The notes beneath the pieces were generated by a model. It was not told where the DNA came from and did no database searches. It worked only from the letters and a program-made list of their open reading frames with translations. Shown piece by piece: positions 27,006 to 47,922 of a DNA stretch of 64,000 nt. Made by a program: the position numbers and the translations under genes. This DNA comes from an uncultured Anaerolinea sp. Its GTDB lineage: Bacteria; Chloroflexota; Anaerolineae; JAAEKA01. The stretch spans positions 4,820 through 68,819 of the forward strand of contig CAZVGR010000007.1 of the NCBI GenBank assembly GCA_964626845.1, written 5' to 3'. Position 1 is the first letter of the stretch. Each line of letters opens with the position of its first letter.

Positions 27006-27077
27006 CACCTCAGGATGACCCTCAGGTCTCAATTCGTGGCGCAGGGCCAACACCCATAACGGGAGTCAGAGTGAAGC

Positions 27078-27810: not shown

Positions 27811-27823
27811 GCCCTGAGGTCGC

Positions 27824-27880
27824 GTCACCAACGGGGCACGACCCCGCCGTAACGGGTGACCGTCCGGCTGATAGCCGGAC
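27824..27880. repeat. REP-like hairpin pair
   Basis: GTCACC...GGTGAC encloses CGGGGCACGACCCCG. It is followed by GTCCGGCTGATAGCCGGAC (27862-27880). Confidence 0.5.
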
Positions 27881-27895
27881 TACGAAGCAGCACTC

Positions 27896-29047
<1,152 letters not shown>

Positions 29048-29058
29048 AGCATCAGCCA

Positions 29059-29127
29059 CGAATTGGGCGAATTAAGCGAATTTCGGATTCCGGCCTCTGC
29101 CATTCGTGAAATTCGCGAAATTCGCGG
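29059..29127. repeat. Inverted short-unit repeat array (GCGAATT units) between nagA and the SIS gene
   Basis: Left arm is CGAATTGGGCGAATTAAGCGAATTTCGG. Right arm is CATTCGTGAAATTCGCGAAATTCGCGG. Confidence 0.7.
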
Positions 29128-29142
29128 CAGAAAGACCTGACC

Positions 29143-30192
29143 ATGATCGACCTGACCACCACCAACCTATACCGGGAGATTCACGAGCAGCCGGCCGTGC
29201 TGGCGCGGGTGCTGCTGGAGGAGCGGGCTACGGCCGAGGCGCTGGCGGCAGAGATCCGGCGGCGCGGCGTGGACCACATGGTGATCGCGGCGCGCGGCAC
29301 CAGCGATAACGCGGCCCGCTACGCCCAATACCTGCTGGGCGCGCATAACGGCCTGCCCGTCGGCCTGGCCGCGCCCAGCCTGTTCAGCATCTATCGCCAG
29401 CCGCCCCGCTTCGGCAACGCGCTGGTGCTGGGCATCAGCCAGAGCGGCAAGAGCCCCGACATCGTCTCGGTGCTGGCTGAAGCGCAGCAGCAGGGCGCGC
29501 TGACGGCCGCCATCACCAACTTCCCTCACTCTGATCTGGCCCAGGTCGCAAACTTCGTCCTGGACCTGCACGCGGGCGAGGAGAAGTCGGTGGCTGCGAC
29601 CAAGACCTACACCGCCTCGCTGGCCGCGCTGGCCCTGCTCAGCGCGGCGCTGAGCAAAGACGATGAGCTGCGCGGCGCGCTGGACAAAGTCCCCGGCGTG
29701 GCGGCCCAGGCGCTGGCGCAGCCCGGTATCGACCGGGTGGCCGAGCGCTACCGCTACATGAACGCCTGCATCGCCATCGGCCGCGGCTTCAACTACTGCA
29801 CCGCCTTCGAGCTGGCCCTCAAGCTGAAGGAGCTGACCTACACCGTGGTCGAGCCGTACAGCAGCGCCGACTTCCTGCATGGCCCGCTGGCGCTGCTCAG
29901 TGAAGGCTTTCCCATGATCGTGGTCGCGCCGTCGGGCAAGATGCTGCCGGAGATCAAGGCTTTCATGGCCACCGCCAGGGAACGCGCGGCCGAGCTGGTG
30001 GTGATCAGCGACGAAGCCGACGCGCTGACCATGGCGCGCATGCCGCTGGCCCTGCCGGCCGGCGTGCCGGAGTGGCTGTCGCCCATGATTGCCATCCTGC
30101 CCGCTCAGCTCTTCGCCATGCATCTGGCCCACACGCGCGACTACGACCCCGACCGGCCGCGTGCGTTGCGGAAAGTGACAGAAACGCTGTGA
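29143..30192 (+). CDS. SIS-domain sugar-phosphate isomerase/deaminase (GlmS-isomerase-like; candidate GlcN-6-P deaminase NagB-II)
   Basis: Two SIS repeats ('[12 protein letters not shown]', '[11 protein letters not shown]'). Adjacent to nagA. Confidence 0.75.
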
Positions 30193-30224
30193 TTGCTGAT
30201 TGGGGGAGCAAGCTGGCTGGCAAC

Positions 30225-30253
30225 TTGCAGCAATCGACGCTGCCGGGTACAAT
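30225..30253 (+). promoter_or_regulatory. Near-consensus sigma70-type promoter for vapBC
   Basis: TTGCAG (30225-30230), a 17-nt spacer, then TACAAT (30248-30253). Confidence 0.6.
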
Positions 30254-30288
30254 CGATCATAGCGACAGGCAACGCAAGTATGATCGAT
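30252..30288 (+). promoter_or_regulatory. 10-bp inverted repeat, candidate VapB operator
   Basis: ATCGATCATA-N17-TATGATCGAT lies immediately after the -10 box and before the RBS AAGGAG. Confidence 0.5.
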
Positions 30289-30305
30289 CAAGGAGTGTGA
30301 GTCCT

Positions 30306-30512
30306 ATGGAGGCTGTGGTCGTCTCGCCGAAGTATCAAGTGGTCATTCCACGCTCGATTCGTGAGCCGTTGGGATTACGGCCCGGACAGACGGTGCAAGT
30401 GATTCTCTATGACAACCGTATCGAGCTCATTCCTGTCCGTCCGATCCGTGAGATGCGCGGGTTCCTGAGGGGAATCGACACCACGGTCGAACGGGAGCCT
30501 GATCGCGTATGA
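30306..30512 (+). CDS. vapB: AbrB/MazE/SpoVT-type antitoxin
   Basis: 'VVSPKYQVVIPRSIREPLGLRPGQTVQV' is a swapped-hairpin motif. It overlaps vapC by 4 nt. Confidence 0.8.
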   Translation: MEAVVVSPKYQVVIPRSIREPLGLRPGQTVQVILYDNRIELIPVRPIREMRGFLRGIDTTVEREPDRV

Positions 30513-30883
30513 ACGTTGTCGACTCATCTGGCTGGTTGGAATACCTTGCCGACGGCGCCAATGCAGACTTCTTTGCTCCAGCCATCGAAGACACGGACGC
30601 GTTGCTGGTGCCATCGATCAGCATCTTCGAGGTGTTCAAGCGGGTCTTAACCCAGCGCAGCGAGGACGAGGCTTTACAGGCCAGTGTGGCGATGCAGCAA
30701 GGTCGAGTGATCGATCTCGACACATCCCTGGCCCTCGAGGCAGCAAGGTTGTCAGCAGTGCTCAAACTGCCGATGGCCGACAGCATCATCTTGGCTACGG
30801 CCCGTGCCTTCAGCGCTACCCTGTGGACGCAGGATGCTGACTTCCGGGACATCACCGACGTTCAGTTCATCGAGAAGACCTGA
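30509..30883 (+). CDS. vapC: PIN-domain toxin
   Basis: '[11 protein letters not shown]...', 'SIFEV' and 'ADSIILATA...TQDADF' are conserved PIN acidic positions. Confidence 0.85.
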
Positions 30884-32375: not shown

Positions 32376-32476
32376 GAACAACTTTGTTAACAGAGTAGTG
32401 ACAGATTGGGCGACTGATGGTACAATGCCTGCATTGAGGCCACTGCTTTCGTCTACCGAGGCCTTGATGACTAGGA

Positions 32477-35400
32477 ATGCACGAACTAATGGCACGCACC
32501 TCTCGAAATGAACGACCGACCATCGGGGTCTTGGCAGGCTGGCAATATTATTGGACTGCCACACCATTGAGCTATCTCAGCCCTATCTATCGGGGGATTC
32601 GACTGGCCGCAGCCGAGCTGGGCTGCAACCTGCTGCTGGGCTGCGGCATGGGCGCGTCGGCCAGCGCGGCCGACTTGTTGCGCCCGGCCTGGCCCATTCC
32701 TTCGCCTGAGGTCGATTTCGTGCCTATCGGGCCGTGGAACACCGATGGCTTGATCGCAGTCAGCCCGTTGCATTCGGAGATCCGTTCGCGTTACATGCAA
32801 GAGGTGATGGCGGCCGGGCATCCAGTGGTCTTCGTCGGTTCAGGCGAACAAGGCCCCACGATCCTGGCGGACAACGCCAGCGGCATCATGCAGGCCATGC
32901 GCCACCTGGCCGAGCACGGCCACCGGCGTATCGCCTTCGTCGCGGGCAGCGTGGAGGACATGGAGGGTGACAGCGGCGACCGGCTGCGAGCTTATCGAGA
33001 CTCGCTGCGCACCTTTGATCTGGTGGACGATCCGCAGCTCGTGGCATTCGGCCAGCACACCTTCGGCTCAGGCTACACGGCGATGGAGCAGATCCTGCGC
33101 TCAGGGGCGCCGTTCGGCGCCGTGCTGGCCAGTAACGACGAGTCCGCGCTGGGGGCGATCCAGGCGTTGGCCGAGGCCGGCCGCCGCGTGCCGGACGACG
33201 TGGCCGTTATCGGCTTCGACGACCGCCCGGAGAGCTCGGTGCAGCAGCCTGCGCTGAGCAGCGTGCAGGTGCCGCTGTTCAAGATGGGCTACCGGGCGGT
33301 GGAGTTGCTGCTGCGCCGCATGGCTGGCAGGGCCGCGGTCGACGAACGGGTGCTGGCGCCCACGCGCCTGATCAGCCGCGAGTCGTGCGGCTGCGGCCGC
33401 AGCGCGGTGCTGGCCGACGTGCTGGACGCCACAGCCGCGCGCCTCAGGATCACAGCTAACGGCGCGCACCATTCCCGGCTGGCGCAGCGGATGGCGGCGG
33501 CAGTGCTGGCCGAGACCCAGGCGTTGGGCGAAGAGGAGACAGTCGCCCTGTGCCAACATTTGGTGGAAACGTTTACGGCCAGCGCGGCGCAGAACGACGC
33601 TGCCCGGTTTCAGCGCAGCCTGGACGAGGTGCTGCGCCAGGTTATTGCCCGCGGCGACGACGCGCATCTTTGGCAGGTGGCGATCTCGGTCCTGCGCGCC
33701 GAGCTGCCCGGCCTGCTGGCGACCATACCTGATCTAAATGGCCTCAATGTCGTGGAGGAGGGGCGCGAGATTCTCAACCAGGCGCGCATCACCATCAGCG
33801 CGGCGATGCGCCACCAGCATCGCCAGGTCGTCGTTGACCAGCGCTGGACCGGCGACCGTATCGGCCAGCTTACGGCCCAGTTGATCAACACCCTGGACGA
33901 AACGGAGGTCTACGACACGCTGGCGCAGGCCTTGCCGCAACTGGGTATTGACCTGGCCTGGGTGGCGCTGTTGGACGGCGAGGGCGATGATCCGGTGGCA
34001 TGGAGCGTGCTGCGCTCCGTCACCTCTCCTGGGCAAAGCGAACTGCGCTTGCCCAGCCGCGAGTTCCCGCCGTCAGATTGGGTGACGCAGGATGGCCCGT
34101 TCAGTCTGGCGCTGCTGCCGCTCATCGGCGGTCGGGGTCGGGCAGGCTACGTAGCATTGGGAACGGAGCAGTTGGAGCTGAACGGCGCCATCGCTCAGGA
34201 GCTGGCGGCGGCTGTCAACACTGCGCAGTTGTACCGCGAGGCAACAGAGGGACGGCGGCTGGCCGAGGAAGCCAGTCAGATGAAAAGCCGCTTCCTTTCG
34301 ACAGTCAGCCACGAGCTGCGCACACCTCTGAATCTGATTGTTGGGCTGACCGGTCTTTTGATCCAGCAGGATCACGACGACCTCCAGTTGCTGCCCGAAG
34401 CGCTGCGGGAGGATATGGAACGCATCCACGCTAACGCCCAACATCTTGGCGGCCTGATCGGCGACGTGCTGGATATGGCCAGCAGCGATGCAGGGCAGTT
34501 GCGGCTGACGCAGGAGTACGTAGACCTGGGGCAGGCGCTGCGTGTGGTGGCAGAGACCGGCAGACAAATGGCGGCCGACAAAGGGCTGGCCTGGCGGGCA
34601 GACTTGCCAGACTCCGGCCCCTGGGTGTGGGGTGATCGGCTGCGCCTGCGCCAGGTAGCCTTGAATCTGATCAGCAATGCGGTCAAGTTTACCGAGCGTG
34701 GCGAAGTGAGCCTGCTGATGAAGTCAGAAGGGGGAGTTGTCACGGTGGCCGTGAGCGACACCGGGCTGGGCATCCCGCCGGATGAGCAACAGACGATCTT
34801 CGAGGAGTTTCGTCGCTCGGAGCGCAGCATCCTGCGCAGCTATCGCGGCCTGGGATTGGGGCTGGCGATCTGCCAACGCCTGATTGGGCTGCACCAGGGA
34901 TCGATGGGGGTTTCTTCCAGCGGCGAAGAGGGCGCCGGATCGACCTTCTTTTTCACCCTGCCGGCTGTGCCAGCGCCAGTTGCTATACCCACACCGCCGG
35001 CTGCCCTGCCACTCGTCCGGCAGCGTGTTCTGGTGCTGACCCCACCGACTGGCGGCAGCCAACGGCTGCGAGAGCATTTGACCCAGCGCGGCTTTATGGT
35101 GCGCGTCGAGCCAGCAACCGACACCCAGAGCTGGCTGGCCCAGTTGCTGGCAGACCCGCCAGGCGCAGTAGTCTTGGATGTCAGCGCGGCGCCGAACCAT
35201 GGCTGGGATGCGTTGAAGGCGATTAAAGGCAACGCGGCGACGCGCAACATCCCGGTGCTGTTCTACGCAGCCGGAGGACAGGGCAGCTCGGTGATGGAGA
35301 TCGACTATCTCACCAAGCCGGTGGAGATGGCTGAGTTGACGCGGGCGCTGGACCAGCGCTGGTTGGTGGCTGGCGTTGATGCCGCCACGCGCACCTTCCT

Positions 35401-36106
35401 GGTGGTCGACGACGATCCCAACACCCTGGAGATGCATGCCCGCATTGTGCAGAACCATGCGCCTGGCAGCCGCGTGCTCAAGGCCCACACCGGCCGCGAG
35501 GCGCTGGGGCTGCTGGAGCAAGGTACGGTCGATCTGATGCTGCTGGATTTGATGATGCCAGAGATGGATGGATTCGCCGTGCTAGAAGCCATGCGAGAAC
35601 GGGAGACTATGCGGGATATCCCCGTGATCGTAGTCACCGGCCAGGTGCTGACCGAGGCAGAGATGGCGCGGCTCAACCAGGGCGTGGTGCGGGTGCTGAG
35701 CAAAGGGGTGTTTGACCTGGACGAAACCCTGGCGCAGGTCGATATGGCGTTGCAGCGACAGCAGAGGCTCAGCAGCGAGGCGCAGCGTCTGGTACGCAAG
35801 GCCATGGCCTATATTCAGCAGAACTACCAGGAAACGTTGACACGCCAGGACCTGGCGCGCTACGTGGGCATGAGCGACGATTACCTGACTTACTGCTTCC
35901 GCCAGGAACTGGGTCTTACGCCCATCGCCTACCTCAACCGCTATCGCATCACCCGGGCTAAGCGGCTGCTCAAGGAGAGCGACAGGACCATCACCCAGAT
36001 CGCGCTGGATGTGGGTTTTTCCGACAGCGGCTACTTTAGCCGTGTCTTCCGCCGGGAGATCGGCATGTCGCCCGATGGATATCGCCGCAGCGAGGGCGCT
36101 GTGTAA
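32477..36106 (+). CDS. Cytoplasmic hybrid regulator: LacI-type ligand-binding domain, GAF-like region, histidine kinase, two receiver-like domains, AraC HTH
   Basis: LacI/GalR core ('RPTIGVLAG...', 'HRRIAFVAG', 'AVLASNDESALGAIQAL', 'VIGFDD'). HisKA 'SRFLSTVSHELRTPLN' and HATPase 'SDTGLGIPPDEQ...GLGLGLAICQRL'. REC 'FLVVDDDPN...LLDLMMPEMDG'. AraC 'IAYLNRYRITRAKRLL...GFSDSGYFSRVFRREIG'. No TM segment seen. Confidence 0.85.
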   Translation: MHELMARTSRNERPTIGVLAGWQYYWTATPLSYLSPIYRGIRLAAAELGCNLLLGCGMGASASAADLLRPAWPIPSPEVDFVPIGPWNTDGLIAVSPLHSEIRSRYMQEVMAAGHPVVFVGSGEQGPTILADNASGIMQAMRHLAEHGHRRIAFVAGSVEDMEGDSGDRLRAYRDSLRTFDLVDDPQLVAFGQHTFGSGYTAMEQILRSGAPFGAVLASNDESALGAIQALAEAGRRVPDDVAVIGFDDRPESSVQQPALSSVQVPLFKMGYRAVELLLRRMAGRAAVDERVLAPTRLISRESCGCGRSAVLADVLDATAARLRITANGAHHSRLAQRMAAAVLAETQALGEEETVALCQHLVETFTASAAQNDAARFQRSLDEVLRQVIARGDDAHLWQVAISVLRAELPGLLATIPDLNGLNVVEEGREILNQARITISAAMRHQHRQVVVDQRWTGDRIGQLTAQLINTLDETEVYDTLAQALPQLGIDLAWVALLDGEGDDPVAWSVLRSVTSPGQSELRLPSREFPPSDWVTQDGPFSLALLPLIGGRGRAGYVALGTEQLELNGAIAQELAAAVNTAQLYREATEGRRLAEEASQMKSRFLSTVSHELRTPLNLIVGLTGLLIQQDHDDLQLLPEALREDMERIHANAQHLGGLIGDVLDMASSDAGQLRLTQEYVDLGQALRVVAETGRQMAADKGLAWRADLPDSGPWVWGDRLRLRQVALNLISNAVKFTERGEVSLLMKSEGGVVTVAVSDTGLGIPPDEQQTIFEEFRRSERSILRSYRGLGLGLAICQRLIGLHQGSMGVSSSGEEGAGSTFFFTLPAVPAPVAIPTPPAALPLVRQRVLVLTPPTGGSQRLREHLTQRGFMVRVEPATDTQSWLAQLLADPPGAVVLDVSAAPNHGWDALKAIKGNAATRNIPVLFYAAGGQGSSVMEIDYLTKPVEMAELTRALDQRWLVAGVDAATRTFLVVDDDPNTLEMHARIVQNHAPGSRVLKAHTGREALGLLEQGTVDLMLLDLMMPEMDGFAVLEAMRERETMRDIPVIVVTGQVLTEAEMARLNQGVVRVLSKGVFDLDETLAQVDMALQRQQRLSSEAQRLVRKAMAYIQQNYQETLTRQDLARYVGMSDDYLTYCFRQELGLTPIAYLNRYRITRAKRLLKESDRTITQIALDVGFSDSGYFSRVFRREIGMSPDGYRRSEGAV

Positions 36107-36312
36107 GAACCAGGGCATGCCTCACCCATGCAATCATGGATCGGGCAGAGTGTGCGCAGAGAGCAAGCTCGCAAACACTGGTAAAAAGCAAGGTTTCAGA
36201 CTTACGGCGACGTTGCATTGCGCAGCGCCGCCGTTTTCTATGATCTGTCCCGACATCTCTCGCTTTTCTCCAAGTCCAAACTCGTGCTATCTTATACAAT
36301 AGTCACGTTAAT

Positions 36313-36326
36313 TGGTAGCGCTTCCA
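36313..36326 (+). promoter_or_regulatory. LacI/cre-like 14-bp palindromic operator candidate
   Basis: TGGTAGCGCTTCCA has a central CG and one arm mismatch. Compare the TGNNANCGNTNNCA pattern of LacI-family sites. It lies 23 nt upstream of the LacI-HTH ORF. Confidence 0.5.
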
Positions 36327-36348
36327 GCGCCATCCAGAAAGGAGCATC

Positions 36349-36561
36349 ATGGCCCTCACTCTGGAACAAATCGCCAAACTGGCTGGCGTTTCCCTCACAA
36401 CCGCTTCCCGCGTGATTAATGAACAGCCCAATGTGCGGCCTGAAGTGCGCGAGCGGGTCTGGCAGGTCATTCGGGAGCATGGCTATCAACCCAATCTCGC
36501 TGCTCGTTCTTTGGCATTGAAACGCTTCGATGCCGATATAAAGACTGTTCAAGACACATAA
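36349..36561 (+). CDS. Stand-alone LacI-family HTH plus hinge (70 aa), no ligand-binding domain
   Basis: 'LEQIAKLAGVSLTTASRVINEQPNVRPEVRERVWQVIREHGYQPNLAARSL' is a canonical LacI N-terminal headpiece. The ORF ends ~15 aa later. RBS AAAGGAG. Confidence 0.65.
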   Translation: MALTLEQIAKLAGVSLTTASRVINEQPNVRPEVRERVWQVIREHGYQPNLAARSLALKRFDADIKTVQDT

Positions 36562-36660: not shown

Positions 36661-38103
36661 ATGTCTCGGAAACACCTGACCATCGTTGTGTCGATGCTTG
36701 TGCTGCTCAGCATGCTGCTGGCAGCCTGTGGCGGCGGCGCTGAGCCGACTGCGGCCCCGGCCCCGGCAGCTCCTGCAGCCGAAGCCCCTGCGGCTCCTGC
36801 CGCTGAAGCCCCTGCGGCCCCGGCGCCGGCGGCTGGCAGCCCTGTAACGATCCGCTGGTTCATCGGCTTGGGCGCCGGCGGCAACCCCGAGGAGATCGAG
36901 CGAGAAAAGGTCTTCGTCGAGGCCTTCAACGCCAAGTACGGCGACAAGTACAATCTGGTCATGGACGTCGTGCCCAACAACACGGCTTATGACGTGCTGA
37001 AGACCCAGATTGCCGCTGGCGACGTGCCCGACATCGTCGGCCCGGTCGGCGTGCGCGGCCTGGCCAGCTTCGAAGGCGCCTGGCTCGACCTCAATCCTTA
37101 CATTCAGGCTTCTGGCTTCGACCTGAGCGACTACGATCCGGCGCTGGTGGAGTTCTACAAGTTCGGCACCGACGCCCAGTTGTTCCTGCCGTTCTCGGTC
37201 TTCCCATCGGCGCTGTGGTACAACAAGGCCCTGTTCGACGAGGCCGGCATGGAATATCCGCCGCACCAGTGGGGCGCCCCCTATGCCGACGGCGACGAGT
37301 GGACCTGGGACAAGCTGCGCGAGCTGGCTATGATCCTGACCGTGGACGGCAACGGCAACGACGCCACTGAAGCAGGCTTCGATCCCAGAAACATCGTCCA
37401 GTTCGGCTACGACGCGCAGTGGCAAGACATCCGCGCTGACTGGAGCCATATCCACGCCGGCAGCTTCGTAGACGAGAACGGCAAGGCCTATGTGCCGGAC
37501 GTCTGGCGCACGGCTGCCAAGTGGTACTACGACGGCATGTTCGGCGACTACTTCATCCCCAACGACAGCTACGTCAACAGCGACCTGATGGCCCAAGGCA
37601 ACACCTTCGGTTCCGGCAACCTGGCCATGAACGCGGTCAACCTGTGGTTCACCTGCTGCACCGAGGGCGTAGTCTGGGACGTGGCAGCCATGCCGTCCTT
37701 CGATGGCAACCTCACCTCCAAGCTGCACGCCGACACCTTCGGCATTCTGCGGGCGGCCAAGAATCCCCAGGCCTCCTGGGAAGTCTACAGCCTGTTCATG
37801 GATGAGTTTGCCGGCGAACTGGCTGCTGTCTATGGCGGCTTCCCTGCCCGCCAGAGTCTGCAAGCAGACGCTCTGGCCGGCCTGCAGGAGCGCTTCCCTG
37901 GCGTAGACTTCCAGGTCTTCGTCGATGGCCTGGCCTATCCTGACGATCCCAGCCACGAGTCGGCGATGCCGAACTTCCTCAAGGCCAGCGATACTTACGG
38001 CGTTTTCGGCGCCAAGTATCAGAGCACGCCTGGTCTGGACATCGACAAGGAACTCGATGCCCTGGTCGTCGAGCTGCAAAAGGTCTTTGACGAAGTGCAG
38101 TAA
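36661..38103 (+). CDS. ABC sugar-transporter solute-binding lipoprotein
   Basis: Signal 'LSMLLAACGG', a Pro/Ala-rich tether (APAAEAPA x2), then family-1 SBP-like sequence. Confidence 0.85.
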   Translation: MSRKHLTIVVSMLVLLSMLLAACGGGAEPTAAPAPAAPAAEAPAAPAAEAPAAPAPAAGSPVTIRWFIGLGAGGNPEEIEREKVFVEAFNAKYGDKYNLVMDVVPNNTAYDVLKTQIAAGDVPDIVGPVGVRGLASFEGAWLDLNPYIQASGFDLSDYDPALVEFYKFGTDAQLFLPFSVFPSALWYNKALFDEAGMEYPPHQWGAPYADGDEWTWDKLRELAMILTVDGNGNDATEAGFDPRNIVQFGYDAQWQDIRADWSHIHAGSFVDENGKAYVPDVWRTAAKWYYDGMFGDYFIPNDSYVNSDLMAQGNTFGSGNLAMNAVNLWFTCCTEGVVWDVAAMPSFDGNLTSKLHADTFGILRAAKNPQASWEVYSLFMDEFAGELAAVYGGFPARQSLQADALAGLQERFPGVDFQVFVDGLAYPDDPSHESAMPNFLKASDTYGVFGAKYQSTPGLDIDKELDALVVELQKVFDEVQ

Positions 38104-38239: not shown

Positions 38240-39217
38240 ATGGCTGTCAAAGATCAAACTTCCGCAGCAGTGGCGGCTCAACCGGCTGTAGCCAAGCCGG
38301 GTCGCCGCGCCTCAACAAAAGCGCAGCAACAACTGCGCTGGGGCCTGTTTTTCATCTCACCCTGGCTAATCGGCTTCCTGGTGTTCCAGTTGCTGCCAAT
38401 CATTGCTACGTTGGCCCTCTCGTTCACCAACTATAATCCCGTCCAACCTGAGAACGTTCGCTGGATCGGTGTGCAAAATTACATCACCATGGCAACTGAC
38501 TCGGCAGTCTGGAAGTCGCTGCAAGTCACGTTGACCTATGCGCTGATCGCCATCCCAGCCAGCTTCATCTTCGGCCTGTTGTTAGCCTCTCTGGTCAACT
38601 CAGTGTTCCTGGTGGGCACCGGCGCTTTCCGCACGCTGTTCTACTCTACGTCAATGATCCCGGTGGTGGCGGCAGGCGTCATCTGGGCTGGTGTAGCTAA
38701 CACCCAGACCGGCTGGCTCAACCTGTTCCTGGGCGCCGTGGGCGTGCAGAACCCGCCCGACTGGCTCAACTCGACCTTCTGGATCTATCCCCTGCTGGTG
38801 ATGATCGGCTTCTGGGGGCTGGGCAACCTGATGCTGACCCTGCTGGCCGGCATGCAAGGCGTGCCTACGGAGATCTATGAGGCGGCCATGATCGACGGCG
38901 CAGGCGGCTGGCGGCGGTTCCGCAACATCACCATCCCCATGATTACACCGGTGATCTTCTACAACCTGACCTTGATGGTGATCGGCGCTTTCAAGTACTT
39001 CGACCTGGCCTACGTTCTCAAGGACGGCACGGGAGGTCCGGAAAACGCCACCCTGTTCTACGCTCTCAACTTCTACAAGAACTCCTTCGTGTACAACCTG
39101 ATGGGCTACGGATCGGCCCTGGCCTGGGTGCTCTTCCTTATCACGCTGGCCTTCACGGCCGTCCTGTTCTGGTCGCAGAGCCGTTGGGTATACTACGCTG
39201 GCGAAGGGAGGAAATAG
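38240..39217 (+). CDS. ABC sugar-transporter permease (MalF/UgpA-type)
   Basis: Six-TM pattern. 'EAAMIDGAGGWRRFRNITIP' is the EAA loop. Confidence 0.88.
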   Translation: MAVKDQTSAAVAAQPAVAKPGRRASTKAQQQLRWGLFFISPWLIGFLVFQLLPIIATLALSFTNYNPVQPENVRWIGVQNYITMATDSAVWKSLQVTLTYALIAIPASFIFGLLLASLVNSVFLVGTGAFRTLFYSTSMIPVVAAGVIWAGVANTQTGWLNLFLGAVGVQNPPDWLNSTFWIYPLLVMIGFWGLGNLMLTLLAGMQGVPTEIYEAAMIDGAGGWRRFRNITIPMITPVIFYNLTLMVIGAFKYFDLAYVLKDGTGGPENATLFYALNFYKNSFVYNLMGYGSALAWVLFLITLAFTAVLFWSQSRWVYYAGEGRK

Positions 39218-39220
39218 ACC

Positions 39221-40300
39221 ATGGCTTCCGCTGCAACAACCGCTCCCAGCAAGAGTTCTGGCCTGACCAACAGACAGCGTGATCTGCTGAGCAAGGCGAT
39301 GGTCACCTCGGTGGCTTTATTACTCATGCTGCTCTTCCTGGCGCCGCTGGGCTACATGTTCACCACCGCCATCAAGAGCGCATCCCAGATCAGTGACCCC
39401 AACGCGCCGCCCCTCTGGCCCCATTCCCCGGTGACCTTCAACTATGAAGGCCAGGAGTTGGAGCTTCTTGTCGTGCCCATGCCCAACGGCAGGACGCAAG
39501 AGTTGGCTGCCTTGCAGAAGACGCGCACGCAAACCACGTTCATCGACCCTGAGAATCCCGCCGCAGGCCAGTTCGTCTGGGAAGGCAACTGGCGAACCCT
39601 GGAGCCTGTCTACGAGCGCGATGCTCAGTGGCAGAACTTCTCGCAGGCGTGGAATGACCTGAACTTCCCGCTGCTGTTCCGCAACACCCTGATCATCGCC
39701 GTCTTTGGCACGATCGGCGCGGTGGGCTCTTCGGTGTTGGTGGCCTATGGCTTCGCCCGCTTCAACTTCAAGGGCAAGAACATCTTGTTCACGATCCTGA
39801 TCGCCACCATCGTGCTGCCGATCCAGGCCACCTTGGTGCCGACGTTCATCCTGTTCTCGACCATCGGCTGGACCAACACCTTCCTGCCGCTGATCGTGCC
39901 GCACTACTTCGCCAACGCCTATAACGTCTTCCTGCTGCGTCAGTACTTCATGCAGATTCCGCGCGATCTGGACGAGGCCGCGGCCATCGACGGCGCTAAC
40001 CCGTTGCGCATCTTCTGGTCGGTGATCCTGCCGCAGTCGATTCCCGCGCTGACGGCTGTGATCCTGTTCCACTTCTTCTTCGCGTGGAACGACTTCTTCG
40101 CTCCGCTGATCTACCTGGTGTCGAAGCCGGATCTCTGGCCGTTGTCGGTGGGCTTACAGAAGTTCAACGCCCTCTACGGCCGGCAGCCGAACCTGATCCA
40201 GGCTGGCGCGCTGATCACCCTGGCGCTGCCAGTAGTGATCTTCTTCCTGGCCCAGCGTGTATTCATGCGCGGCATCGTCTTCTCGGGCGTCGAGAAGTAA
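39221..40300 (+). CDS. ABC sugar-transporter permease (MalG/UgpE-type) with enlarged first external loop
   Basis: 'EAAAIDGANPLRIFWSVILP' is the EAA loop. It is a paralog of the partial permease at 1..578. Confidence 0.88.
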   Translation: MASAATTAPSKSSGLTNRQRDLLSKAMVTSVALLLMLLFLAPLGYMFTTAIKSASQISDPNAPPLWPHSPVTFNYEGQELELLVVPMPNGRTQELAALQKTRTQTTFIDPENPAAGQFVWEGNWRTLEPVYERDAQWQNFSQAWNDLNFPLLFRNTLIIAVFGTIGAVGSSVLVAYGFARFNFKGKNILFTILIATIVLPIQATLVPTFILFSTIGWTNTFLPLIVPHYFANAYNVFLLRQYFMQIPRDLDEAAAIDGANPLRIFWSVILPQSIPALTAVILFHFFFAWNDFFAPLIYLVSKPDLWPLSVGLQKFNALYGRQPNLIQAGALITLALPVVIFFLAQRVFMRGIVFSGVEK

Positions 40301-41305: not shown

Positions 41306-44300
41306 ATGATACGCAAGACCATGCTTCTGTTTTCGCTTTTCCTGCTCATTGCCAGCATCGCATCGCCCTTTGCGATGTTTGCGCCAACCGCTGTTTCGGC
41401 GGCCCCTGCGGAACCGTGGCCCACCATCACTTTTGACTCGGATGCGGTCACCTACACCCTGACCGGCTTTGGCGGCGCTGAGGACTCGACTGTCGTGGTC
41501 GATCCCACCGATCCCGCCAACAATGTAGCCCGGGTGGTCAAGTCGGCGACGGCTCAGTTGTGGGCCGGGACCACGGTATCCACCGGCCCGAACAACACGG
41601 TTCCTCAGTTGCTGTTCACGGCTGACGACACGACCATGTCGGTGCGGGTCTGGTCGCCTGACGCGGGCATCCAGGTCCGGCTGAAGGTCGAGGACGCCGC
41701 GGACGGCAGCAAGTCGGTGGAGACCGAGGCGACGACCACGGTGGCGGCCGGCTGGGAGACGCTGACCTTCGACTTCGCCAACCCGGCGCCGGGCACCCAG
41801 CCGCTGAACCTGGGCTACACCTACAATCGGGCTTCCATCTTCTTCAACTTCGGCGTGCCTGGCTCCGTGGCCGGAGAGAAGATCTACTTCTTCGACGACG
41901 TCGCCTTCAGCGGCGGCACAGTCCCACCACCGCCGCCCCCGCCAGGCCAATGGCCCACCATCACCTTCGACTCGGATGCGGTCACCTACACCCTGACCGG
42001 CTTTGGCGGCGCTGAGGACTCGACCGTTGTGGTCGATCCCACCGACCCCGCCAACAACGTGGCCCGTGTGGTCAAGTCGGCGACGGCTGAGCTGTGGGCT
42101 GGGACCACGGTATCCACTGGCGCCAACCTGACGATACCGCAGTTGCTGTTCACGACTGAGACCACAACCATGACGGTGCGGGTTTGGTCGCCTGACGCGG
42201 GCATCCAGGTGCGGCTGAAGGTCGAGGATGCAGCAGACGGCAGCAAATCGGTGGAGACCGAGGCGACGACCACGGTGGCGACCGACTGGGAGACGTTGAC
42301 CTTCGACTTCGCCAACCCGGCGCCGGGCACCCAGCCGCTGAACCTGGGCTACACCTACAATCGGGCTTCCATCTTCTTCAACTTCGGCGTGCCTGGCTCC
42401 GTGGCCGGAGAGAAGATCTACTTCTTCGACGACGTCGCCTTCAGCGGCGGCACAGTCCCACCACCGCCGCCCCCGCCAGGCCAATGGCCCACCATCACCT
42501 TCGACTCGGATGCGGTCACCTACACCCTGACCGGCTTTGGCGGCGCTGAGGACTCGACCGTCGTGGTCGATCCCACCGATCCCACCAACAACGTGGCCCG
42601 GGTGGTCAAGTCGGCGACGGCCGAGCTGTGGGCTGGGACCACAGTGTCCACCGGCCCCAACCTGACCGTGCCAGCGCTGCCGTTCACGGCTGACGACACC
42701 ACCATGTCGGTGCGGGTCTGGTCGCCTGACGCGGACATCCAGGTCCGGCTAAAGGTCGAGGATGCAACGGACGGCAGCAAATCGGTGGAGACCGAGGCAA
42801 CGACCACCGTGGCGGGCGACTGGGAGACGCTGGTCTTCGACTTCGCTAACCCGGCAGCCGGCACCCAGCCCCTGAACCTGGGCTACACCTACGACAAGGC
42901 TTCCATCTTCTTCAACTTCGGCGTGCCTGGCGCTGTGGCCGGAGAGAAGATCTACTTCTTCGACGACGTCGCGTTCGGCGGCGCGCCGCCCCCACCGCCT
43001 GCCCCTGGAAAATCGGTCATCATCGACGACTTCGAGGATGGCTTGTTGCCCACGGGCACTGATCCTAACGGCATTGGCGTGGGCTTCATCACGGCCAACG
43101 CACCCGGCGCCAGCGTCGCCATCGCCATCACCGACGCGCCGCCTGCGCCCGTCCCCGGCGCGGCTGTGCCCAACAACGTGCTGCAAGAGGATCTGACCCT
43201 GGGCGTCGGCCAGTGGGCCGTGTTCGTCCACAACTTCACCAACGACGCGGCCGATGCCTGGGTGCCGCAAGACTGGACTTCGTACGAAGGCTTCAGCCTG
43301 TGGCTGTACGGCAACAACACCGGCGGCACGATCTTCCTGGACATCCTGGACAACCGCAACCCCGACTCCACCACCGACGACGCTGAGCGCTGGAGCGTTG
43401 ACATCCCCGACACCTTCAACGGCTGGCAGCACTTCCTGTTCACCTGGGACCAGTTCAACCGCAAGGACATCGGCAACGGCGCACCCAACGACGGCTTCAC
43501 CCTGACCGAGGTCCACGGCTACGCGGTCGGCGGCTATGGCAACGTCAACATGGGCAGCCAGAGCTACTTCATCGACGACGTGGGCCTGATCGTCCGCACC
43601 ACGATCATCGACGACTTCGAGGATGGCCTGTTGCCCACGGGCACTGATCCTAACGGCATTGGCGTGGGCTTCATCACGGCCAACGCACCCGGCGCCAGCG
43701 TCGCCATCGCCATCACCGACGCGCCGCCTGCGCCCGTCCCCGGCGCGGCTGTGCCCAACAACGTGCTGCAAGAGGATCTGACCCTGGGCGTCGGCCAGTG
43801 GGCCGTGTTCGTCCACAACTTCACCAACGACGCGGCCGATGCCTGGGTGCCGCAAGACTGGACTTCGTACGAAGGCTTCAGCCTGTGGCTGTACGGCAAC
43901 AACACCGGCGGCACGATCTTCCTGGACATCCTGGACAACCGCAACCCCGACTCCACCACCGACGACGCTGAGCGCTGGAGCGTTGACATCCCCGACACCT
44001 TCAACGGCTGGCAGCACTTCCTGTTCACCTGGGACCAGTTCAACCGCAAGGACATCGGCAACGGCGCACCCAACGACGGCTTCACCCTGACCGAGGTCCA
44101 CGGCTACGCGGTCGGCGGCTATGGCAACGTCAACATGGGCAGCCAGAGCTACTTCATCGACGACGTGGCGATCTTCGGCAACACTGGCGGCGGCGAGCAG
44201 CCGTTGCAGGTCCAGTTCAGCCGCAACTTCTACCAGGTGACCGAGGGCGACACGGCTGTGATCACCGTGACGCTCAACATGACCTCCACTGCGCCAGTCT

Positions 44301-46390
44301 CGATCAGCTACATCACCGTCGAGGGCTACGCCACGCCTGATCGCAACTACGTGCCCACCAGCGGCGAGGTAGTCATCGCACCCGGCGAGCTGGCGCAGAC
44401 CTTCACCGTGGCAACGATCCACGACGGCAAGCCCAGCGGCGAGCAGCGGCTGATGCTGAACCTGCGCAACCCCAACGGCGCCGACGCCGGCTTCCGGGTA
44501 CAGGCCATGCTCACCATCCTGGACATCGACCCCGTAAATCCGATGATGGTGGACGACTTCCAGGGCTTCCATCGCTTCGCCACTTCCGGCGATATCGCGC
44601 TGTCGATCACCGAGCTGGCGGCCGGCTCGGCTATGGCCCTGCCGGGGCAGATGTTCTACGAGGACGTGCTGACCGGCGTCTACGGCCCGGCCGGCGGCGC
44701 TGCACCCAGCTTCCTCCAGACCTTCCCTGTCAGCGAGGACTGGAGCGGCTACAACGGCCTGACCTTCTGGTACTACGGCAGCAACAGCGGCCAAGCGATG
44801 ACCGTCAACCTGCTGGACAACCAGACGACGACCACGGCCCAGACACCGCCCGACCAATGGGAACTGGTTTGGAGCGACGAGTTCGATGACCAGGCCGGCA
44901 TCGGCCCCAACCCGAATGTCTGGTCGCACGAAATCGGCGACGGCACGCTCAACAACATCCCCGGCTGGGGCAACAGCGAGTTCCAGTTCTACACGGACAG
45001 CCTGGACAACGCAGCCACTGACGGCGGCGGCAACCTGGCCATCACCCTGGACGAGGCTGATCCTGCCCAGGAGCTGCGCTGTTGGTACGGCCCATGCCGG
45101 TACACCTCTGCCCGCCTGATCTCGGCCAACAAGATCGAGGCTGAGTACGGACGTATCGAGTCCCGCATCCTGGTGCCCGATGGCCCAGCCGGCCTGTGGC
45201 CCGCCTTCTGGATGCTGGGCACCAACATCGGCGAGGTCGGCTGGCCGCAGAGCGGCGAGATTGACATCATGGAGTACGTCAGCCGCAACCCCTACGAGGT
45301 GTTCGGCACGATCCACGGCCCTGGCTACTCTGGCGGCGCGGCCTTCGGCAACACCTACACCTTCCCGCAGCCGGTGGCCGAGGACTATCACACCTTCTCG
45401 GTGGAGTGGTCGCCCGACCAGATCCTCTGGTACGTGGACGACATCCTCTACCACAGCGCTACTCCGGCCAACGTGGCGCCTAACGAATGGGTCTTCAACC
45501 ATCCCTTCTTCCTGATCCTGAACCTGGCGATCGGCGGCAACTTTGGCGGCACGATCAGCCCTGACATGACCTTCCCGCAGCAGGCGCTGGTGGACTACGT
45601 GCGGGTCTATCAGAAGCCCAACAACTCGGAGCGCTTCGAGGCCAGCTTCGTCGATAACTTCAGCGGCTGGCGCCAGGTGACTGTGCCCTTCTCGGCCTTC
45701 ACCCGCAGCGCGCAGCAGCCAGCCGGCGCACCCAACGACGGCCTGGGCCTGAACCAGGTCTGGGGCTACGGCATCACCCTGCCGGCAAACAGCAGCGGCA
45801 CGTTCCACATGGACCAGGTGCAACTGGCCCGCATCCCGACCGTGCAGCGCTCGCGGCGCTTCAACGTCGATCAGGATACCTTCATCAACGGCGCGCAGCC
45901 GGCTGTGGCCTTCGGCAGCGCCCAGAGCATGTGGGTTGGCTTCTTCGATCAACTGCGCCCAGTGGTGCATGCGCCCATCGCAGGAATCCCTAACGACGCA
46001 GAGATCGACCTGGCCTACCTGTACCTCTACGTGTTCGAGGGCCGCGGCTTCACGCAGTGGGCTAACTCGGTCATCGAAAACGTCTCTGCTCACGCCGTCA
46101 CCACGCCTTGGGTGTCCGACACCGCCACCTGGTGGACGCCGTGGACCATGCCTGGCGGCGACTACGGCCCGGCCGTGGGCGCCAACCACATCGGCTCCGG
46201 CAAGATCAACACCTGGCTGCGGCTGGATGTGACCGAGGCCGTGCGCGACATCGTCAGCAGCGGCGTCAACCACGGCATCCTGCTAACGTCCAGCGACAAC
46301 CGCGGCGTGCGCTATGGGTTGGCCGCCTCAGAGTACTTCGACCCCTCGAAGAACGGCTACATCCGCGTGTACTTCCGCACTGTAGACTGA
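41306..46390 (+). CDS. Secreted multidomain GH16 beta-1,3(4)-glucanase (laminarinase type)
   Basis: Domain order: signal peptide; 3 x 178-aa module; 2 x 195-aa CBM-like module; Calx-beta-like segment ('QVQFSRNFYQVTEGDTAVITVTLN'); GH16 catalytic domain; DNRLRE-like C-terminal domain ('TSSDNRGVRYG'). The GH16 domain carries 'WSDEFD' and the catalytic motif 'GEIDIMEY'. Confidence 0.9.
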   Translation: MIRKTMLLFSLFLLIASIASPFAMFAPTAVSAAPAEPWPTITFDSDAVTYTLTGFGGAEDSTVVVDPTDPANNVARVVKSATAQLWAGTTVSTGPNNTVPQLLFTADDTTMSVRVWSPDAGIQVRLKVEDAADGSKSVETEATTTVAAGWETLTFDFANPAPGTQPLNLGYTYNRASIFFNFGVPGSVAGEKIYFFDDVAFSGGTVPPPPPPPGQWPTITFDSDAVTYTLTGFGGAEDSTVVVDPTDPANNVARVVKSATAELWAGTTVSTGANLTIPQLLFTTETTTMTVRVWSPDAGIQVRLKVEDAADGSKSVETEATTTVATDWETLTFDFANPAPGTQPLNLGYTYNRASIFFNFGVPGSVAGEKIYFFDDVAFSGGTVPPPPPPPGQWPTITFDSDAVTYTLTGFGGAEDSTVVVDPTDPTNNVARVVKSATAELWAGTTVSTGPNLTVPALPFTADDTTMSVRVWSPDADIQVRLKVEDATDGSKSVETEATTTVAGDWETLVFDFANPAAGTQPLNLGYTYDKASIFFNFGVPGAVAGEKIYFFDDVAFGGAPPPPPAPGKSVIIDDFEDGLLPTGTDPNGIGVGFITANAPGASVAIAITDAPPAPVPGAAVPNNVLQEDLTLGVGQWAVFVHNFTNDAADAWVPQDWTSYEGFSLWLYGNNTGGTIFLDILDNRNPDSTTDDAERWSVDIPDTFNGWQHFLFTWDQFNRKDIGNGAPNDGFTLTEVHGYAVGGYGNVNMGSQSYFIDDVGLIVRTTIIDDFEDGLLPTGTDPNGIGVGFITANAPGASVAIAITDAPPAPVPGAAVPNNVLQEDLTLGVGQWAVFVHNFTNDAADAWVPQDWTSYEGFSLWLYGNNTGGTIFLDILDNRNPDSTTDDAERWSVDIPDTFNGWQHFLFTWDQFNRKDIGNGAPNDGFTLTEVHGYAVGGYGNVNMGSQSYFIDDVAIFGNTGGGEQPLQVQFSRNFYQVTEGDTAVITVTLNMTSTAPVSISYITVEGYATPDRNYVPTSGEVVIAPGELAQTFTVATIHDGKPSGEQRLMLNLRNPNGADAGFRVQAMLTILDIDPVNPMMVDDFQGFHRFATSGDIALSITELAAGSAMALPGQMFYEDVLTGVYGPAGGAAPSFLQTFPVSEDWSGYNGLTFWYYGSNSGQAMTVNLLDNQTTTTAQTPPDQWELVWSDEFDDQAGIGPNPNVWSHEIGDGTLNNIPGWGNSEFQFYTDSLDNAATDGGGNLAITLDEADPAQELRCWYGPCRYTSARLISANKIEAEYGRIESRILVPDGPAGLWPAFWMLGTNIGEVGWPQSGEIDIMEYVSRNPYEVFGTIHGPGYSGGAAFGNTYTFPQPVAEDYHTFSVEWSPDQILWYVDDILYHSATPANVAPNEWVFNHPFFLILNLAIGGNFGGTISPDMTFPQQALVDYVRVYQKPNNSERFEASFVDNFSGWRQVTVPFSAFTRSAQQPAGAPNDGLGLNQVWGYGITLPANSSGTFHMDQVQLARIPTVQRSRRFNVDQDTFINGAQPAVAFGSAQSMWVGFFDQLRPVVHAPIAGIPNDAEIDLAYLYLYVFEGRGFTQWANSVIENVSAHAVTTPWVSDTATWWTPWTMPGGDYGPAVGANHIGSGKINTWLRLDVTEAVRDIVSSGVNHGILLTSSDNRGVRYGLAASEYFDPSKNGYIRVYFRTVD
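41417..43018 (+). repeat. 3 x 534-bp tandem coding repeat (putative glycan-binding modules with poly-Pro linkers)
   Basis: TGGCCCACCATCAC... recurs at 41417, 41951 and 42485. The copies differ by scattered substitutions. Confidence 0.9.
43019..44188 (+). repeat. 2 x 585-bp tandem coding repeat, almost identical at DNA level
   Basis: ATCATCGACGACTTCGAGGATGG... occurs at 43019 and 43604. The antisense track ORFs 42952..43500 and 43564..44085 differ at a single residue over the shared part. Confidence 0.9.
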
Positions 46391-46584: not shown

Positions 46585-47922
46585 TTGCAACTCCACCACC
46601 ACTGCACAGCCCAACACACCCCCTATCGCCTGACCGAGCTTCCGATTCCAGCCATCGACGCCGCCAGCGCTGAGATGGCATCGATCTTTGTCGACACCAC
46701 CGTGCGTTATCAGGAGATCGAGGGCTTCGGCGGCGCATTCACCGAAGCGGCCGCGCTGACCTTCTTCAAGCTGCCGGCCGAGCGCCAGGCTGAGGTTCTC
46801 GCGGCCTACTTCGACCCCACCCACGGCCACGGCTACACCCTCGGCCGCACGCACATCAACAGTTGCGACTTCTCGCTGGGCAACTACGCCTATGCCGAGG
46901 TGGACGGCGACGTGGAGCTGCGCCGCTTCTCCATCGAGCGCGACCGCCAGGCGCTGATCCCGCTGATCCATGCAGCCCAGCAGACCGCCGGCCGGCCGCT
47001 CAAGTTGCTGGCCTCGCCCTGGAGCCCGCCGGCCTGGATGAAGACCAACGGCGACATGTGCCACGGCGGCCAGCTCAAGCCCGAATACCGCGCAGCCTGG
47101 GCCGAGTACTACTGCCGCTATGTGCGCGCCTACGAGCAGGAGGGCATCCCCATCTGGGCGTTGACGGTGCAGAACGAGCCAGAGGCGGTGCAGGTCTGGG
47201 AGTCTTGCATCTTCAGCGGCGAAGCGGAGCGCGACTTTGTGCGCGACTACCTGGGACCGGCGCTGGCGCAGGCCGGCCTGGCCGACGTGCATTTGCTGAT
47301 CTGGGACCACAACCGCGATCGCATGGTTGAGCGGGCCAGCGCCGTGCTCAGCGACCCTGAAGCGGCAAGGTATGTTTGGGGCGTGGCCTTTCACTGGTAT
47401 GTGGTCGACTGCTTCGACAACGTGCAGCGGGTGCATGATGCTTTTCCCGACAAAAAGCTGCTCTTCACCGAGGGCACGCAGGAAGGCGGCCCGCACCTGG
47501 GCGAGTGGTCCATGGCCGAGCGCTACGCTCGCTCGATCATCAACGACCTCAACCGCTGGACGGTAGGCTGGATCGACTGGAACCTGCTGCTGGATACCAC
47601 GGGCGGACCGAACCATGTGGGCAACCTGTGCAGCGCGCCCATCCTGGCCGACACGGAGACCGGCGAGCTGCATTATCAGAGCAGCTACTACGCCATCGGC
47701 CACTTTGCCCGTTTCATCCAGCCCGGCGCGCAGCGCGTGCTCTGCGCCACAACGCACGACTTGTTGGAAGCAGCCGCTTTCGTCAACCCCGCTGGACAAA
47801 CCATCGTCGTGCTGCTCAATCGTTCGGACCAAATGGGCCAGGTGACACTGGCGATAAACAACGAACGGGCCGTCGTCGATTGTCCGGCCCATTCCATTTC
47901 AACTTTCCAGGTTGTATCATGA
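46585..47922 (+). CDS. GH30 glycoside hydrolase (glucosylceramidase / beta-1,6-glucanase type); start uncertain
   Basis: Motifs 'YQEIEGFGGAFTEAAA', 'SPWSPPAWMKTNG', 'WALTVQNEPE' and 'LFTEG'. The only upstream in-frame start is TTG at 46585, and there is no signal peptide. Confidence 0.8.
   Translation: MQLHHHCTAQHTPYRLTELPIPAIDAASAEMASIFVDTTVRYQEIEGFGGAFTEAAALTFFKLPAERQAEVLAAYFDPTHGHGYTLGRTHINSCDFSLGNYAYAEVDGDVELRRFSIERDRQALIPLIHAAQQTAGRPLKLLASPWSPPAWMKTNGDMCHGGQLKPEYRAAWAEYYCRYVRAYEQEGIPIWALTVQNEPEAVQVWESCIFSGEAERDFVRDYLGPALAQAGLADVHLLIWDHNRDRMVERASAVLSDPEAARYVWGVAFHWYVVDCFDNVQRVHDAFPDKKLLFTEGTQEGGPHLGEWSMAERYARSIINDLNRWTVGWIDWNLLLDTTGGPNHVGNLCSAPILADTETGELHYQSSYYAIGHFARFIQPGAQRVLCATTHDLLEAAAFVNPAGQTIVVLLNRSDQMGQVTLAINNERAVVDCPAHSISTFQVVS

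Follow-up and report, generated by a model that had tools for sequence, protein, structure and literature searches.

A LacI-type sugar-binding core joined to a histidine kinase, receivers and an AraC domain at a beta-glucan locus of Chloroflexota

Can the sugar pocket of a repressor serve as the input of a two-component system inside the cell? This question is raised by a gene at positions 32477..36106 (+ strand) of a 64,000-nucleotide stretch of DNA from an uncultured Anaerolinea sp. (contig CAZVGR010000007.1; the whole stretch is referred to here as the window). An earlier note on this DNA had proposed that the gene encodes a cytoplasmic hybrid of a LacI-type ligand-binding core, a histidine kinase, two receivers (REC) and an AraC-type helix-turn-helix (HTH), placed at the head of a beta-glucan locus. 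The reading that we favour, and consider probable, is that the product is a soluble, cytoplasmic, one-polypeptide two-component regulator, in which an imported beta-gluco-oligosaccharide would be sensed by the LacI-type cleft, phosphoryl transfer would run directly from His612 to Asp1024, and the AraC domain would activate a promoter that carries two conserved boxes (A and B) downstream of the gene.

Architecture and cellular location of the hybrid regulator

The gene is an uninterrupted open reading frame (ORF) of 1209 codons. Its probable start is Met5 (position 32489), and public gene calls for an identical protein (P0001) begin at this residue to give 1205 aa. A putative Sigma-70-like promoter, GTGACA-17-TACAAT with a TG before the -10, lies at 32398..32426 (+ strand) as a consensus match only (10/12 positions in a consensus scan). 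Pfam identifies, in order, Peripla_BP_3/Peripla_BP_1, HisKA, HATPase_c, two Response_reg stretches and HTH_18/HTH_AraC. When the parts that lie outside Pfam are included, the order becomes an HTH-less LacI/GalR core, a helical bundle, a GAF-like domain (these three are referred to below as the sensor cassette), HisKA/HATPase, a degenerate receiver, a canonical receiver and the AraC HTH; all of these lie on the + strand. In a full-length AlphaFold2 (AF2) model, with a predicted local distance difference test score (pLDDT) of 78.7, helices run unbroken across the domain junctions. The ORF, the Pfam matches and the model together bear out the domain order and gene limits of the earlier note.

The protein is predicted to be soluble. 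Its highest-scoring 19-residue Kyte-Doolittle window reaches 1.29, well under the range of transmembrane (TM) segments, and two in-frame stop codons immediately 5' of the ATG exclude a hidden N-terminal HTH or signal peptide. No N-terminal signal peptide or credible TM segment was found in the query, in 120 close homologues or in 108 cassette representatives of at least 600 aa; windows of 1.6 or above in relatives proved to be internal beta-strands of the GAF, REC and catalytic (CA) domains, and a hidden HTH, signal peptide or TM segment was therefore rejected. The earlier note's claim that there is no TM segment agrees with these results, and its cytoplasmic placement of the protein is supported by the lack of export and membrane signals in the hybrid and its homologues alike. 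No Hpt family was detected in the hybrid by Pfam, even at E <= 1, and no curated NCBIfam model reached its cut-off.

The ligand-binding core occupies residues 14-305 (32516..33391) and was assigned from Pfam, PDB and residue alignments. Peripla_BP_3 matches residues 142-304 (E 1.9e-36) and Peripla_BP_1 residues 89-300, and a search of the PDB with residues 1-348 returns an ancestral LacI (3e-35), CelR (5ysz; 4.8e-29) and then AscG, CcpA, LacI and PurR, which upholds the LacI-type fold proposed for this region. Alignment with Escherichia coli LacI by BLASTP pairs R169, N220 and D248 with LacI R197, N246 and D274, which we take to be the classic effector contacts. R169 and D248 are nearly invariant in diverse cassette relatives down to 28% identity, and N220 is invariant among close homologues. 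Core homology starts at about LacI residue 62, exactly past the hinge helix; Pfam finds no LacI HTH (PF00356) in the hybrid, and upstream there is no space for one. At the end of the core stands a junction motif, R-x-S-C-G-C (residues 301-306, 33377..33394), which is invariant or nearly so in cassette relatives down to 28% identity. A third cysteine, C359 (33551-33553), is nearly invariant in cassette relatives of every output type, and the motif and C359 could possibly form a metal, redox or structural site.

The region between the core and the kinase is less readily classified. A sequence search of the PDB with the linker (residues 306-608) gave nothing significant, and the bundle is also without a Pfam match. 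In an AF2 model of residues 301-610 (pLDDT 89), five helices form a bundle, which is followed by a helix of 45 residues, an alpha/beta domain with five strands and a helix at the C-terminus. The bundle corresponds to residues ~308-415 (33398..33721), and the long helix with the alpha/beta domain, modelled at pLDDT ~90, to residues ~425-562 (33749..34162). The top Foldseek matches of the latter in the PDB are all GAF domains (PDE5A, a dual-sensor kinase, PtsP, KdpD and a NifA-like protein), with a probability of ~1.0, a best E of only 3e-3 and a TM-score of only ~0.5 with single GAF domains; the Pfam family GAF_2 aligns with residues 473-515 at 16.2 bits, under its cut-off of 28.6. We take GAF-like, rather than GAF, to be a fair description of the modelled domain.

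From the GAF-like domain a single unbroken helix (residues 566-631 of the full-length model) continues into the DHp domain. This signalling helix and DHp/HisKA together span 34163..34495, with the Pfam HisKA match at residues 602-673 and the putative phospho-acceptor at His612 (codon 34310-34312). The HATPase_c catalytic domain follows (residues 719-830, 34631..34966) with its N, G1, F and G2 boxes kept. Of 116 homologues, 95% or more keep the motifs SHELRTPLN (containing H612), LNLISNAVKFT, DTGLGI and GLGLGLAI.

Two receivers succeed the kinase. The first (residues ~850-960, 35024..35356) is a true homologue of receivers in the PDB (E 1.8e-7), and the full-length model folds it as (beta-alpha)5; it keeps K947 and, at the position of the phospho-acceptor Asp, D901, and the acidic pair and the Thr/Ser are absent (VLVLTPPTGG; PVLFYAAG). 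The second (residues ~973-1090, 35393..35746; best Response_reg match 975-1083) keeps all five signature residues, namely D978/D979, the putative phospho-acceptor D1024 (codon 35546-35548), T1053 and K1075. The order of a degenerate and then a canonical receiver is thus as the earlier note had described it. Its term phosphorelay is too strong: with no Hpt, and with no metal-binding acidic pair in the first receiver, transfer is expected to be a single His-to-Asp step. The protein ends in an AraC-type HTH_18 output domain (residues 1126-1204, 35852..36088; Pfam 4.8e-27).

Relatives of the hybrid and their exchanged outputs

A search of 5.8 billion proteins for full-length homologues (E <= 1e-30) gave 1256 matches. 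Among the best 120 clusters, 116 are full length, at 58-86% identity, and almost all of the homologues listed have the same Pfam set. They derive from NCBI, JGI, ENA and Logan assemblies, and one independent Logan contig carries an identical gene. The named sources are Anaerolineae, Caldilineales and Chloroflexi metagenome-assembled genomes (MAGs), and annotations are generic, for example 'substrate-binding domain-containing protein'.

The sensor cassette has a wider distribution than this one architecture. An exhaustive phmmer search with residues 1-600 against 1.84 billion 50%-identity representatives (E <= 1e-30) returned 907 clusters, and about 130 of the best 150 span the whole LacI-core, bundle and GAF cassette. 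It can be seen that the outputs attached to it vary: besides the HK-REC-REC-AraC type (HK, histidine kinase; ~1200 aa) represented by the hybrid at 32477-36106, we found GGDEF (~750 aa; P0131 and many more), an HD-GYP-type HD_5 domain (718 aa; P0143), STAS (767 aa; P0151), REC-AraC without a kinase (851 aa; P0126), a kinase only (801-881 aa; P0139 and P0153) and an AraC HTH alone (714 aa; P0125). P0125 consists of the cassette and an AraC domain and has no phosphotransfer part, which shows that the signal enters through the cassette itself and that an AraC domain can be driven by it without phosphotransfer. A LacI HTH is absent from all 150 representatives. Judged from these sequences, the cassette is a modular cytoplasmic input.

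The taxonomic spread was surveyed with one genome per GTDB species and is accordingly a lower bound. Among the matches listed, full-cassette proteins occur only in Chloroflexota (Caldilineaceae, Anaerolineaceae/-ales, a Chloroflexus MAG and others), which is also where full-length relatives of the hybrid architecture are found. This agrees with the earlier note's statement that the lineage is very different from Bacteroidetes. Partial cassette matches, among those listed, come from Myxococcota, Limnocylindria and Spirochaetota MAGs, the remainder being ordinary LacI repressors. One Anaerolineae MAG (L023) has two cassette paralogues, at 2025-4955 and 7699-9837, less than 5 kb apart and each ~30% identical to the query, and this pair points to expansion of the family within individual genomes.

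The promoter and headpiece gene downstream of the regulator

We examined the DNA between the regulator and the operon that follows it, both in the window and in related loci (designated by L numbers). A terminator-like hairpin with a T-run (36204..36238, + strand) was recognised by alignment; it is imperfect in the window, where a simple terminator scan did not call it, and perfect in L002 and L004. Next comes a two-box element (36240..36274, + strand) made up of box A, ATGATCTGTCC (36240-36250), and box B, CGCTTTTCTCCAAG (36261-36274), and then, 20 nucleotides (nt) 3' of box B, a -10 hexamer, TACAAT (36295..36300, + strand), which reads TAnAAT or TACAAT in related loci. The scan called no -35 hexamer or sigma-70-type promoter for the 36295-36300 region. 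The block keeps its layout in 13/13 loci (the window, L002, L004-L008, L011, L088/89 and L090-L093) where the flanking DNA diverges: box A (ATGATCTGTCC or GAAATGTCC) is separated by ~10 nt from box B (CGCTTTTCTCCAAG), which in turn stands 17-21 nt before a TAnAAT-type -10. A conserved site that overlaps the -35 is the classic arrangement of AraC/XylS-type activators, and we infer for this reason that boxes A and B are the target of the AraC domain of the hybrid. Box B has one exact copy in the window; a match with three mismatches at 22305 has neither box A nor -10 context. Extra copies of box B, or of the palindrome described below, were considered elsewhere in the window, for example before the GH16 or GH18 genes, and were rejected, both being single copies.

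The first gene after this promoter (36349..36561, + strand; ribosome-binding site AAAGGAG at 36338-36344) encodes a stand-alone LacI HTH and hinge helix of 70 aa (Pfam LacI PF00356, 1.4e-18), and an identical Logan contig carries the same gene as a called 70-aa PF00356 protein. The headpiece aligns with LacI residues 4-60 at 42% identity, so that its end coincides with the start of the core homology in the hybrid. It belongs to a family of 257 homologues (E <= 1e-5): all 120 of those listed are 56-103 aa long, at 65-95% identity, and none is a full-length repressor. Sequence conservation is high across residues 1-59, beyond which the tail varies. With 120/120 listed homologues intact and this conservation of residues 1-59, the idea that the gene is a decaying pseudogene was rejected. 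In both homologues whose surroundings were examined, P0385 and P0388, the headpiece gene lies between a hybrid homologue and a solute-binding protein (SBP) gene, and tblastn located it next to hybrid homologues in L002-4, L011, L088-90, L092 and L093. It was not found by tblastn in L005, L006, L007 or L091, which rules out a universal partner of the hybrid; the gene and its candidate operator are present in about two-thirds of the related loci sampled.

This candidate operator is a LacI-type 14-bp palindrome with a central CG, TGGTAGCGCTTCCA (36313..36326, unstranded), placed between the -10 and the ribosome-binding site of the headpiece gene. It resembles the box of CebR (Streptomyces) and CelR, which we take to be TGGGAGCGCTCCCA. 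Equivalent palindromes stand at the same position in L002 (TGGTAGCGCTCCCA), L004 (TGGCAGCGCTCCCA), L088 (TGAAAGCGGTTTCA), L090 (TGGAAGCGATCCCA), L092/93 (TGGAACCGATCCCA) and, as a variant, L011 (GGGAG-CGTT-CTCCC), and only in loci with the headpiece gene; L007, in which the SBP gene comes directly under this promoter, has no such palindrome. In the window TGGTAGCGCTTCCA occurs once, a count that is not above chance, and since a single occurrence is statistically unremarkable its support comes from the conserved position and the co-occurrence with the headpiece gene. Together, the gene and the palindrome suggest that LacI-type repression is probably still in the circuit. The earlier note had held that sensing proceeds by phosphorelay rather than by simple repression. 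Its dismissal of repression is incomplete given the headpiece gene (36349-36561) and palindrome (36313-36326) immediately downstream.

The beta-glucan locus and the possible working of the regulator

The genes that follow encode an importer and secreted enzymes. A lipoprotein SBP of a CUT1-type ABC sugar importer (36661..38103, + strand; lipobox LLAACGGG) has no Pfam match of its own at 1e-3, its syntenic orthologues being SBP_bac_1/8 proteins. After the lipobox the protein continues with an Ala/Pro-rich repeat linker, APAAPAAEAPAAPAAEAPAAPAPAAG. Two ABC permease genes (BPD_transp_1; 38240-39217 and 39221-40300, + strand) come next, then a DUF1269 gene, a 1694-aa secreted-type beta-glucanase with three CBM11 modules, a Calx-beta domain and a GH16 domain (Pfam; 41306..46390, + strand), and a GH30 glycoside hydrolase (46585..47922, + strand; Glyco_hydro_30, 4.7e-83). 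Synteny of the regulator, ABC importer and GH16/CBM11 gene is found in at least 12 independent loci, with regulators at 84% (L002/3), 73% (L004), 60-69% (L005, L007, L008, L092 and L093), 49% (L011) and 43-67% (L088-90) identity to the hybrid, so that the linkage to the importer and GH16/CBM11 (and GH30) is kept down to about 43% sensor identity. The placement of the regulator at the head of a beta-glucan locus, as first suggested for the window, is thereby supported. In L006 and L091 the glucanase gene directly follows the regulator, with no transporter, and box B and the -10 are still present.

More distant members of the family have other neighbours. In L014 a member of the HK type adjoins an SBP with a pullulanase X25 domain and a MalF-like permease, and a GGDEF-type member in L015 (5622-7880) adjoins a ribokinase and two inosine-uridine nucleoside hydrolases, neighbours that hint at a ribose or nucleoside ligand. 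The presence of distant members beside other sugar ABC loci suggests that the family behaves as a set of paralogous sugar sensors, each with its own uptake locus.

Several further features surround these genes. After the GH16 and GH30 genes the window has a 1294-aa ORF without a Pfam match (47505-51389, + strand), and Pfam-less ORFs of 1075-1177 aa stand after the glucanase genes in L004, L006, L088 and L091; this large ORF may belong to the beta-glucan locus as a conserved part of unknown function. Upstream of the regulator lies an amino-sugar/chitin-type cluster (22540-30192) with a 955-aa DUF5060 and GH18 protein, a NagA-like amidohydrolase (27896-29047) and a SIS-domain protein (29143-30192). 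The order amidohydrolase, SIS, CoA-transferase upstream of the regulator is kept in L002, together with NanE, DUF4127 and ROK genes. Between the SIS and CoA-transferase genes, at 30300-30883, a small AbrB/SpoVT-like ORF (within 30072-30512) shares 4 nt with a PIN-domain ORF (30509-30883), and the two have the look of a VapBC-type toxin-antitoxin pair; L002 has a Uma2-family gene there. At 54000-62000 the G+C content falls from ~0.64 to 0.54-0.58, in a region that includes a TPR protein (53800-55362, minus strand) and a HisKA_3 kinase (56463-58814) and is possibly of different origin.

From these elements a mechanism can be proposed. The secreted GH16/CBM11 and GH30 enzymes would free an oligosaccharide from beta-1,3/1,4(/1,6)-glucan, and the adjacent ABC transporter would import it. 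Inside the cell the sugar would occupy the cleft of the HTH-less LacI-type core, and a conformational change of the core dimer would be passed through the helical bundle, the GAF-like domain and the continuous signalling helix to DHp, where it would alter, in one direction or the other, the autophosphorylation of His612. The phosphoryl group would be transferred directly to Asp1024 of the canonical receiver, with the pseudo-receiver serving as a structural or regulatory spacer. Phosphorylation of the receiver would then free the AraC domain to bind boxes A and B, overlapping the missing -35 (~36240-36300), and the operon would be switched on, comprising the headpiece gene, the SBP, the permeases and, probably, the glucanases. 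The headpiece protein, product of the first gene of the operon, would most likely bind the palindrome past the -10 and exert LacI-type repression or negative feedback on the same promoter.

Some observations weigh against this proposal. The GAF-like domain could itself be the true sensor, or a second one. As judged from sequence, the conserved D901 and K947 may give the pseudo-receiver some phospho-chemistry of its own. As a LacI headpiece by itself would be expected to bind DNA weakly, the role of the headpiece is uncertain. No second copy of boxes A and B was found upstream of the GH16 gene in the window, so its co-regulation would depend on read-through or another promoter.

One alternative is a non-covalent docking of the 70-aa headpiece to the hybrid, at the N-subdomain face of its HTH-less core. 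Without sugar, a hybrid dimer would hold two headpieces on the palindrome and repress; sugar would release the headpieces and start kinase-to-AraC activation. Several observations favour this: the headpiece (LacI 4-60) and the core (from ~62) are colinear halves of one LacI, the headpiece gene adjoins a hybrid homologue in 9/9 distinct carrying loci sampled, the palindrome is found only where that gene is found, no HTH occurs on the 150 cassette representatives, and in L088/89 the headpiece protein, at 76% identity, has diverged less than the sensor cassette, at 43-45%. The geometry would also be compatible, as in LacI structures the N-terminus of the core, on the DNA side, and its C-terminus are at opposite ends. 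However, about a third of the beta-glucan-type loci (L005, L006, L007 and L091) have no headpiece gene, from which it follows that the hybrid works without it; the variable tail past the hinge helix offers no obvious docking peptide; and none of the 150 cassette representatives is a natural fusion ('Rosetta stone') of the two parts. We think this arrangement unlikely.

A different possibility is that the LacI-like core is a dimerisation scaffold only, and that the GAF-like domain or the invariant cysteine motif senses a nucleotide, a metal or redox state. Conservation of the GAF-like fold, R-x-S-C-G-C and C359 in every cassette relative, whatever its output, speaks for such a sensor. Against it, R169, N220 and D248 are retained at the effector-contact positions, family members consistently adjoin sugar importers or sugar-catabolic genes, and the GAF-like domain is small and under the Pfam threshold; we judge this reading to be quite improbable. 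An artefact, in which a frameshift or mis-assembly had fused a LacI-like gene, a kinase gene and an AraC-type response-regulator gene, can be given almost no credence. The same architecture recurs in the 116 full-length clusters, whose assemblies are independent and come from four data sources, the identical gene is present on the independent Logan contig, and the AF2 helices are unbroken across the junctions. L090, a low-quality long-read contig, presents the opposite case, the same gene being split there by frameshifts. A fusion artefact was accordingly rejected on the full-length homologues and the identical Logan copy, and a soluble regulator that senses an imported sugar through its LacI-type cleft is the reading that we retain.

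Parallels with known systems bring out what this regulator combines. The biology of the hybrid two-component systems (HTCS) of Bacteroidetes is described in PMC11253607. The likeness to these HK-REC-AraC hybrids that the earlier note had drawn holds, with HisKA, HATPase, REC and AraC HTH on one chain; as with HTCS, the gene adjoins the glycan-utilisation genes that it presumably controls, and paralogues are paired with different glycan loci. BT1754 of B. thetaiotaomicron, an HTCS fructose sensor with a periplasmic-binding-protein (PBP) fold, also shares with the hybrid a type-I PBP-fold sensor, but the sensor of the hybrid is of the LacI-repressor and not the ribose-binding-protein lineage. 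In contrast to HTCS, the sensor is cytoplasmic, with no extracytoplasmic domain bounded by a signal peptide or TM segment, and would respond to an imported rather than a periplasmic oligosaccharide; the helical bundle, GAF-like domain and pseudo-receiver are additions; the partners are an SBP-dependent ABC importer and secreted multidomain glycoside hydrolases, with no SusC/SusD-type families among the neighbours scanned; and the lineage is Chloroflexota.

With the LacI/GalR regulators CelR (Thermobifida fusca, 5ysz) and CebR (Streptomyces) the hybrid shares a homologous core with the effector-contact residues kept, and, as in their systems, there is a CebR-like palindrome, TGGTAGCGCTTCCA, in the operon promoter and a LacI HTH and hinge in the locus. 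Unlike in LacI/GalR proteins, core and headpiece are on two genes, the core is fused to a kinase-receiver-AraC chain, and proteins made up of the headpiece alone, 56-103 aa long, are a conserved family in their own right. Three-part sugar sensing in Firmicutes, of which XylFII-LytS is an example, is listed in PMC8050422. In these systems, as here, a PBP-fold sensor is linked to a histidine kinase, an AraC-type regulator (there a REC-AraC protein of the YesN type) and an ABC sugar transporter operon, but they use three proteins, a membrane kinase and sensing outside the cell, whereas the hybrid unites everything in a single soluble polypeptide and would sense inside the cell. The best NCBIfam similarities over the HK-REC part are to the phosphorelay kinases ArcB, BarA, TorS and RcsC; the hybrid differs from these in falling far below the cut-offs (TorS 225 vs 676 bits), in having no Hpt or TM segment and in carrying its DNA-binding output on the same chain.

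Open-access full text (including PMC11253607, PMC8050422, PMC10443332 and PMC4052901) yielded no account of either a cytoplasmic LacI-core kinase or a LacI family that consists of headpieces only, an absence which is not proof, since the open-access literature alone was covered. The hybrid architecture is widespread in sequence databases and HTCS-like, yet uncharacterised.

Two-component sugar sensing is normally extracytoplasmic and LacI-type sensing is normally one-component repression; this family combines both, with a repressor-type pocket that would read the imported sugar and report through a kinase to an AraC activator within one soluble protein. The hybrid is the dominant regulator type at the beta-glucan loci of Anaerolineae and Caldilineae, which are abundant, poorly cultivated polysaccharide degraders of sludge, sediments and soils. 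If the headpiece does dock on the core, one cytoplasmic sensor would have opposite effects on a single promoter, with repression exerted by the headpiece at the +1 palindrome and activation by phospho-AraC at the -35 boxes. The headpiece-only protein appears to be an undescribed class of small DNA-binding protein and would offer a natural test case for LacI allostery in trans, and the soluble sensor, promoter boxes and candidate operator form a compact candidate set of parts for oligosaccharide biosensors. The occurrence of the cassette with GGDEF, HD-GYP, STAS and AraC outputs suggests a general control of biofilm and second-messenger decisions by intracellular sugar in Chloroflexota; if this is so, the cassette would be a general sugar-input module of the phylum, serving cyclic di-GMP signalling, partner switching, and two-component and one-component regulators.

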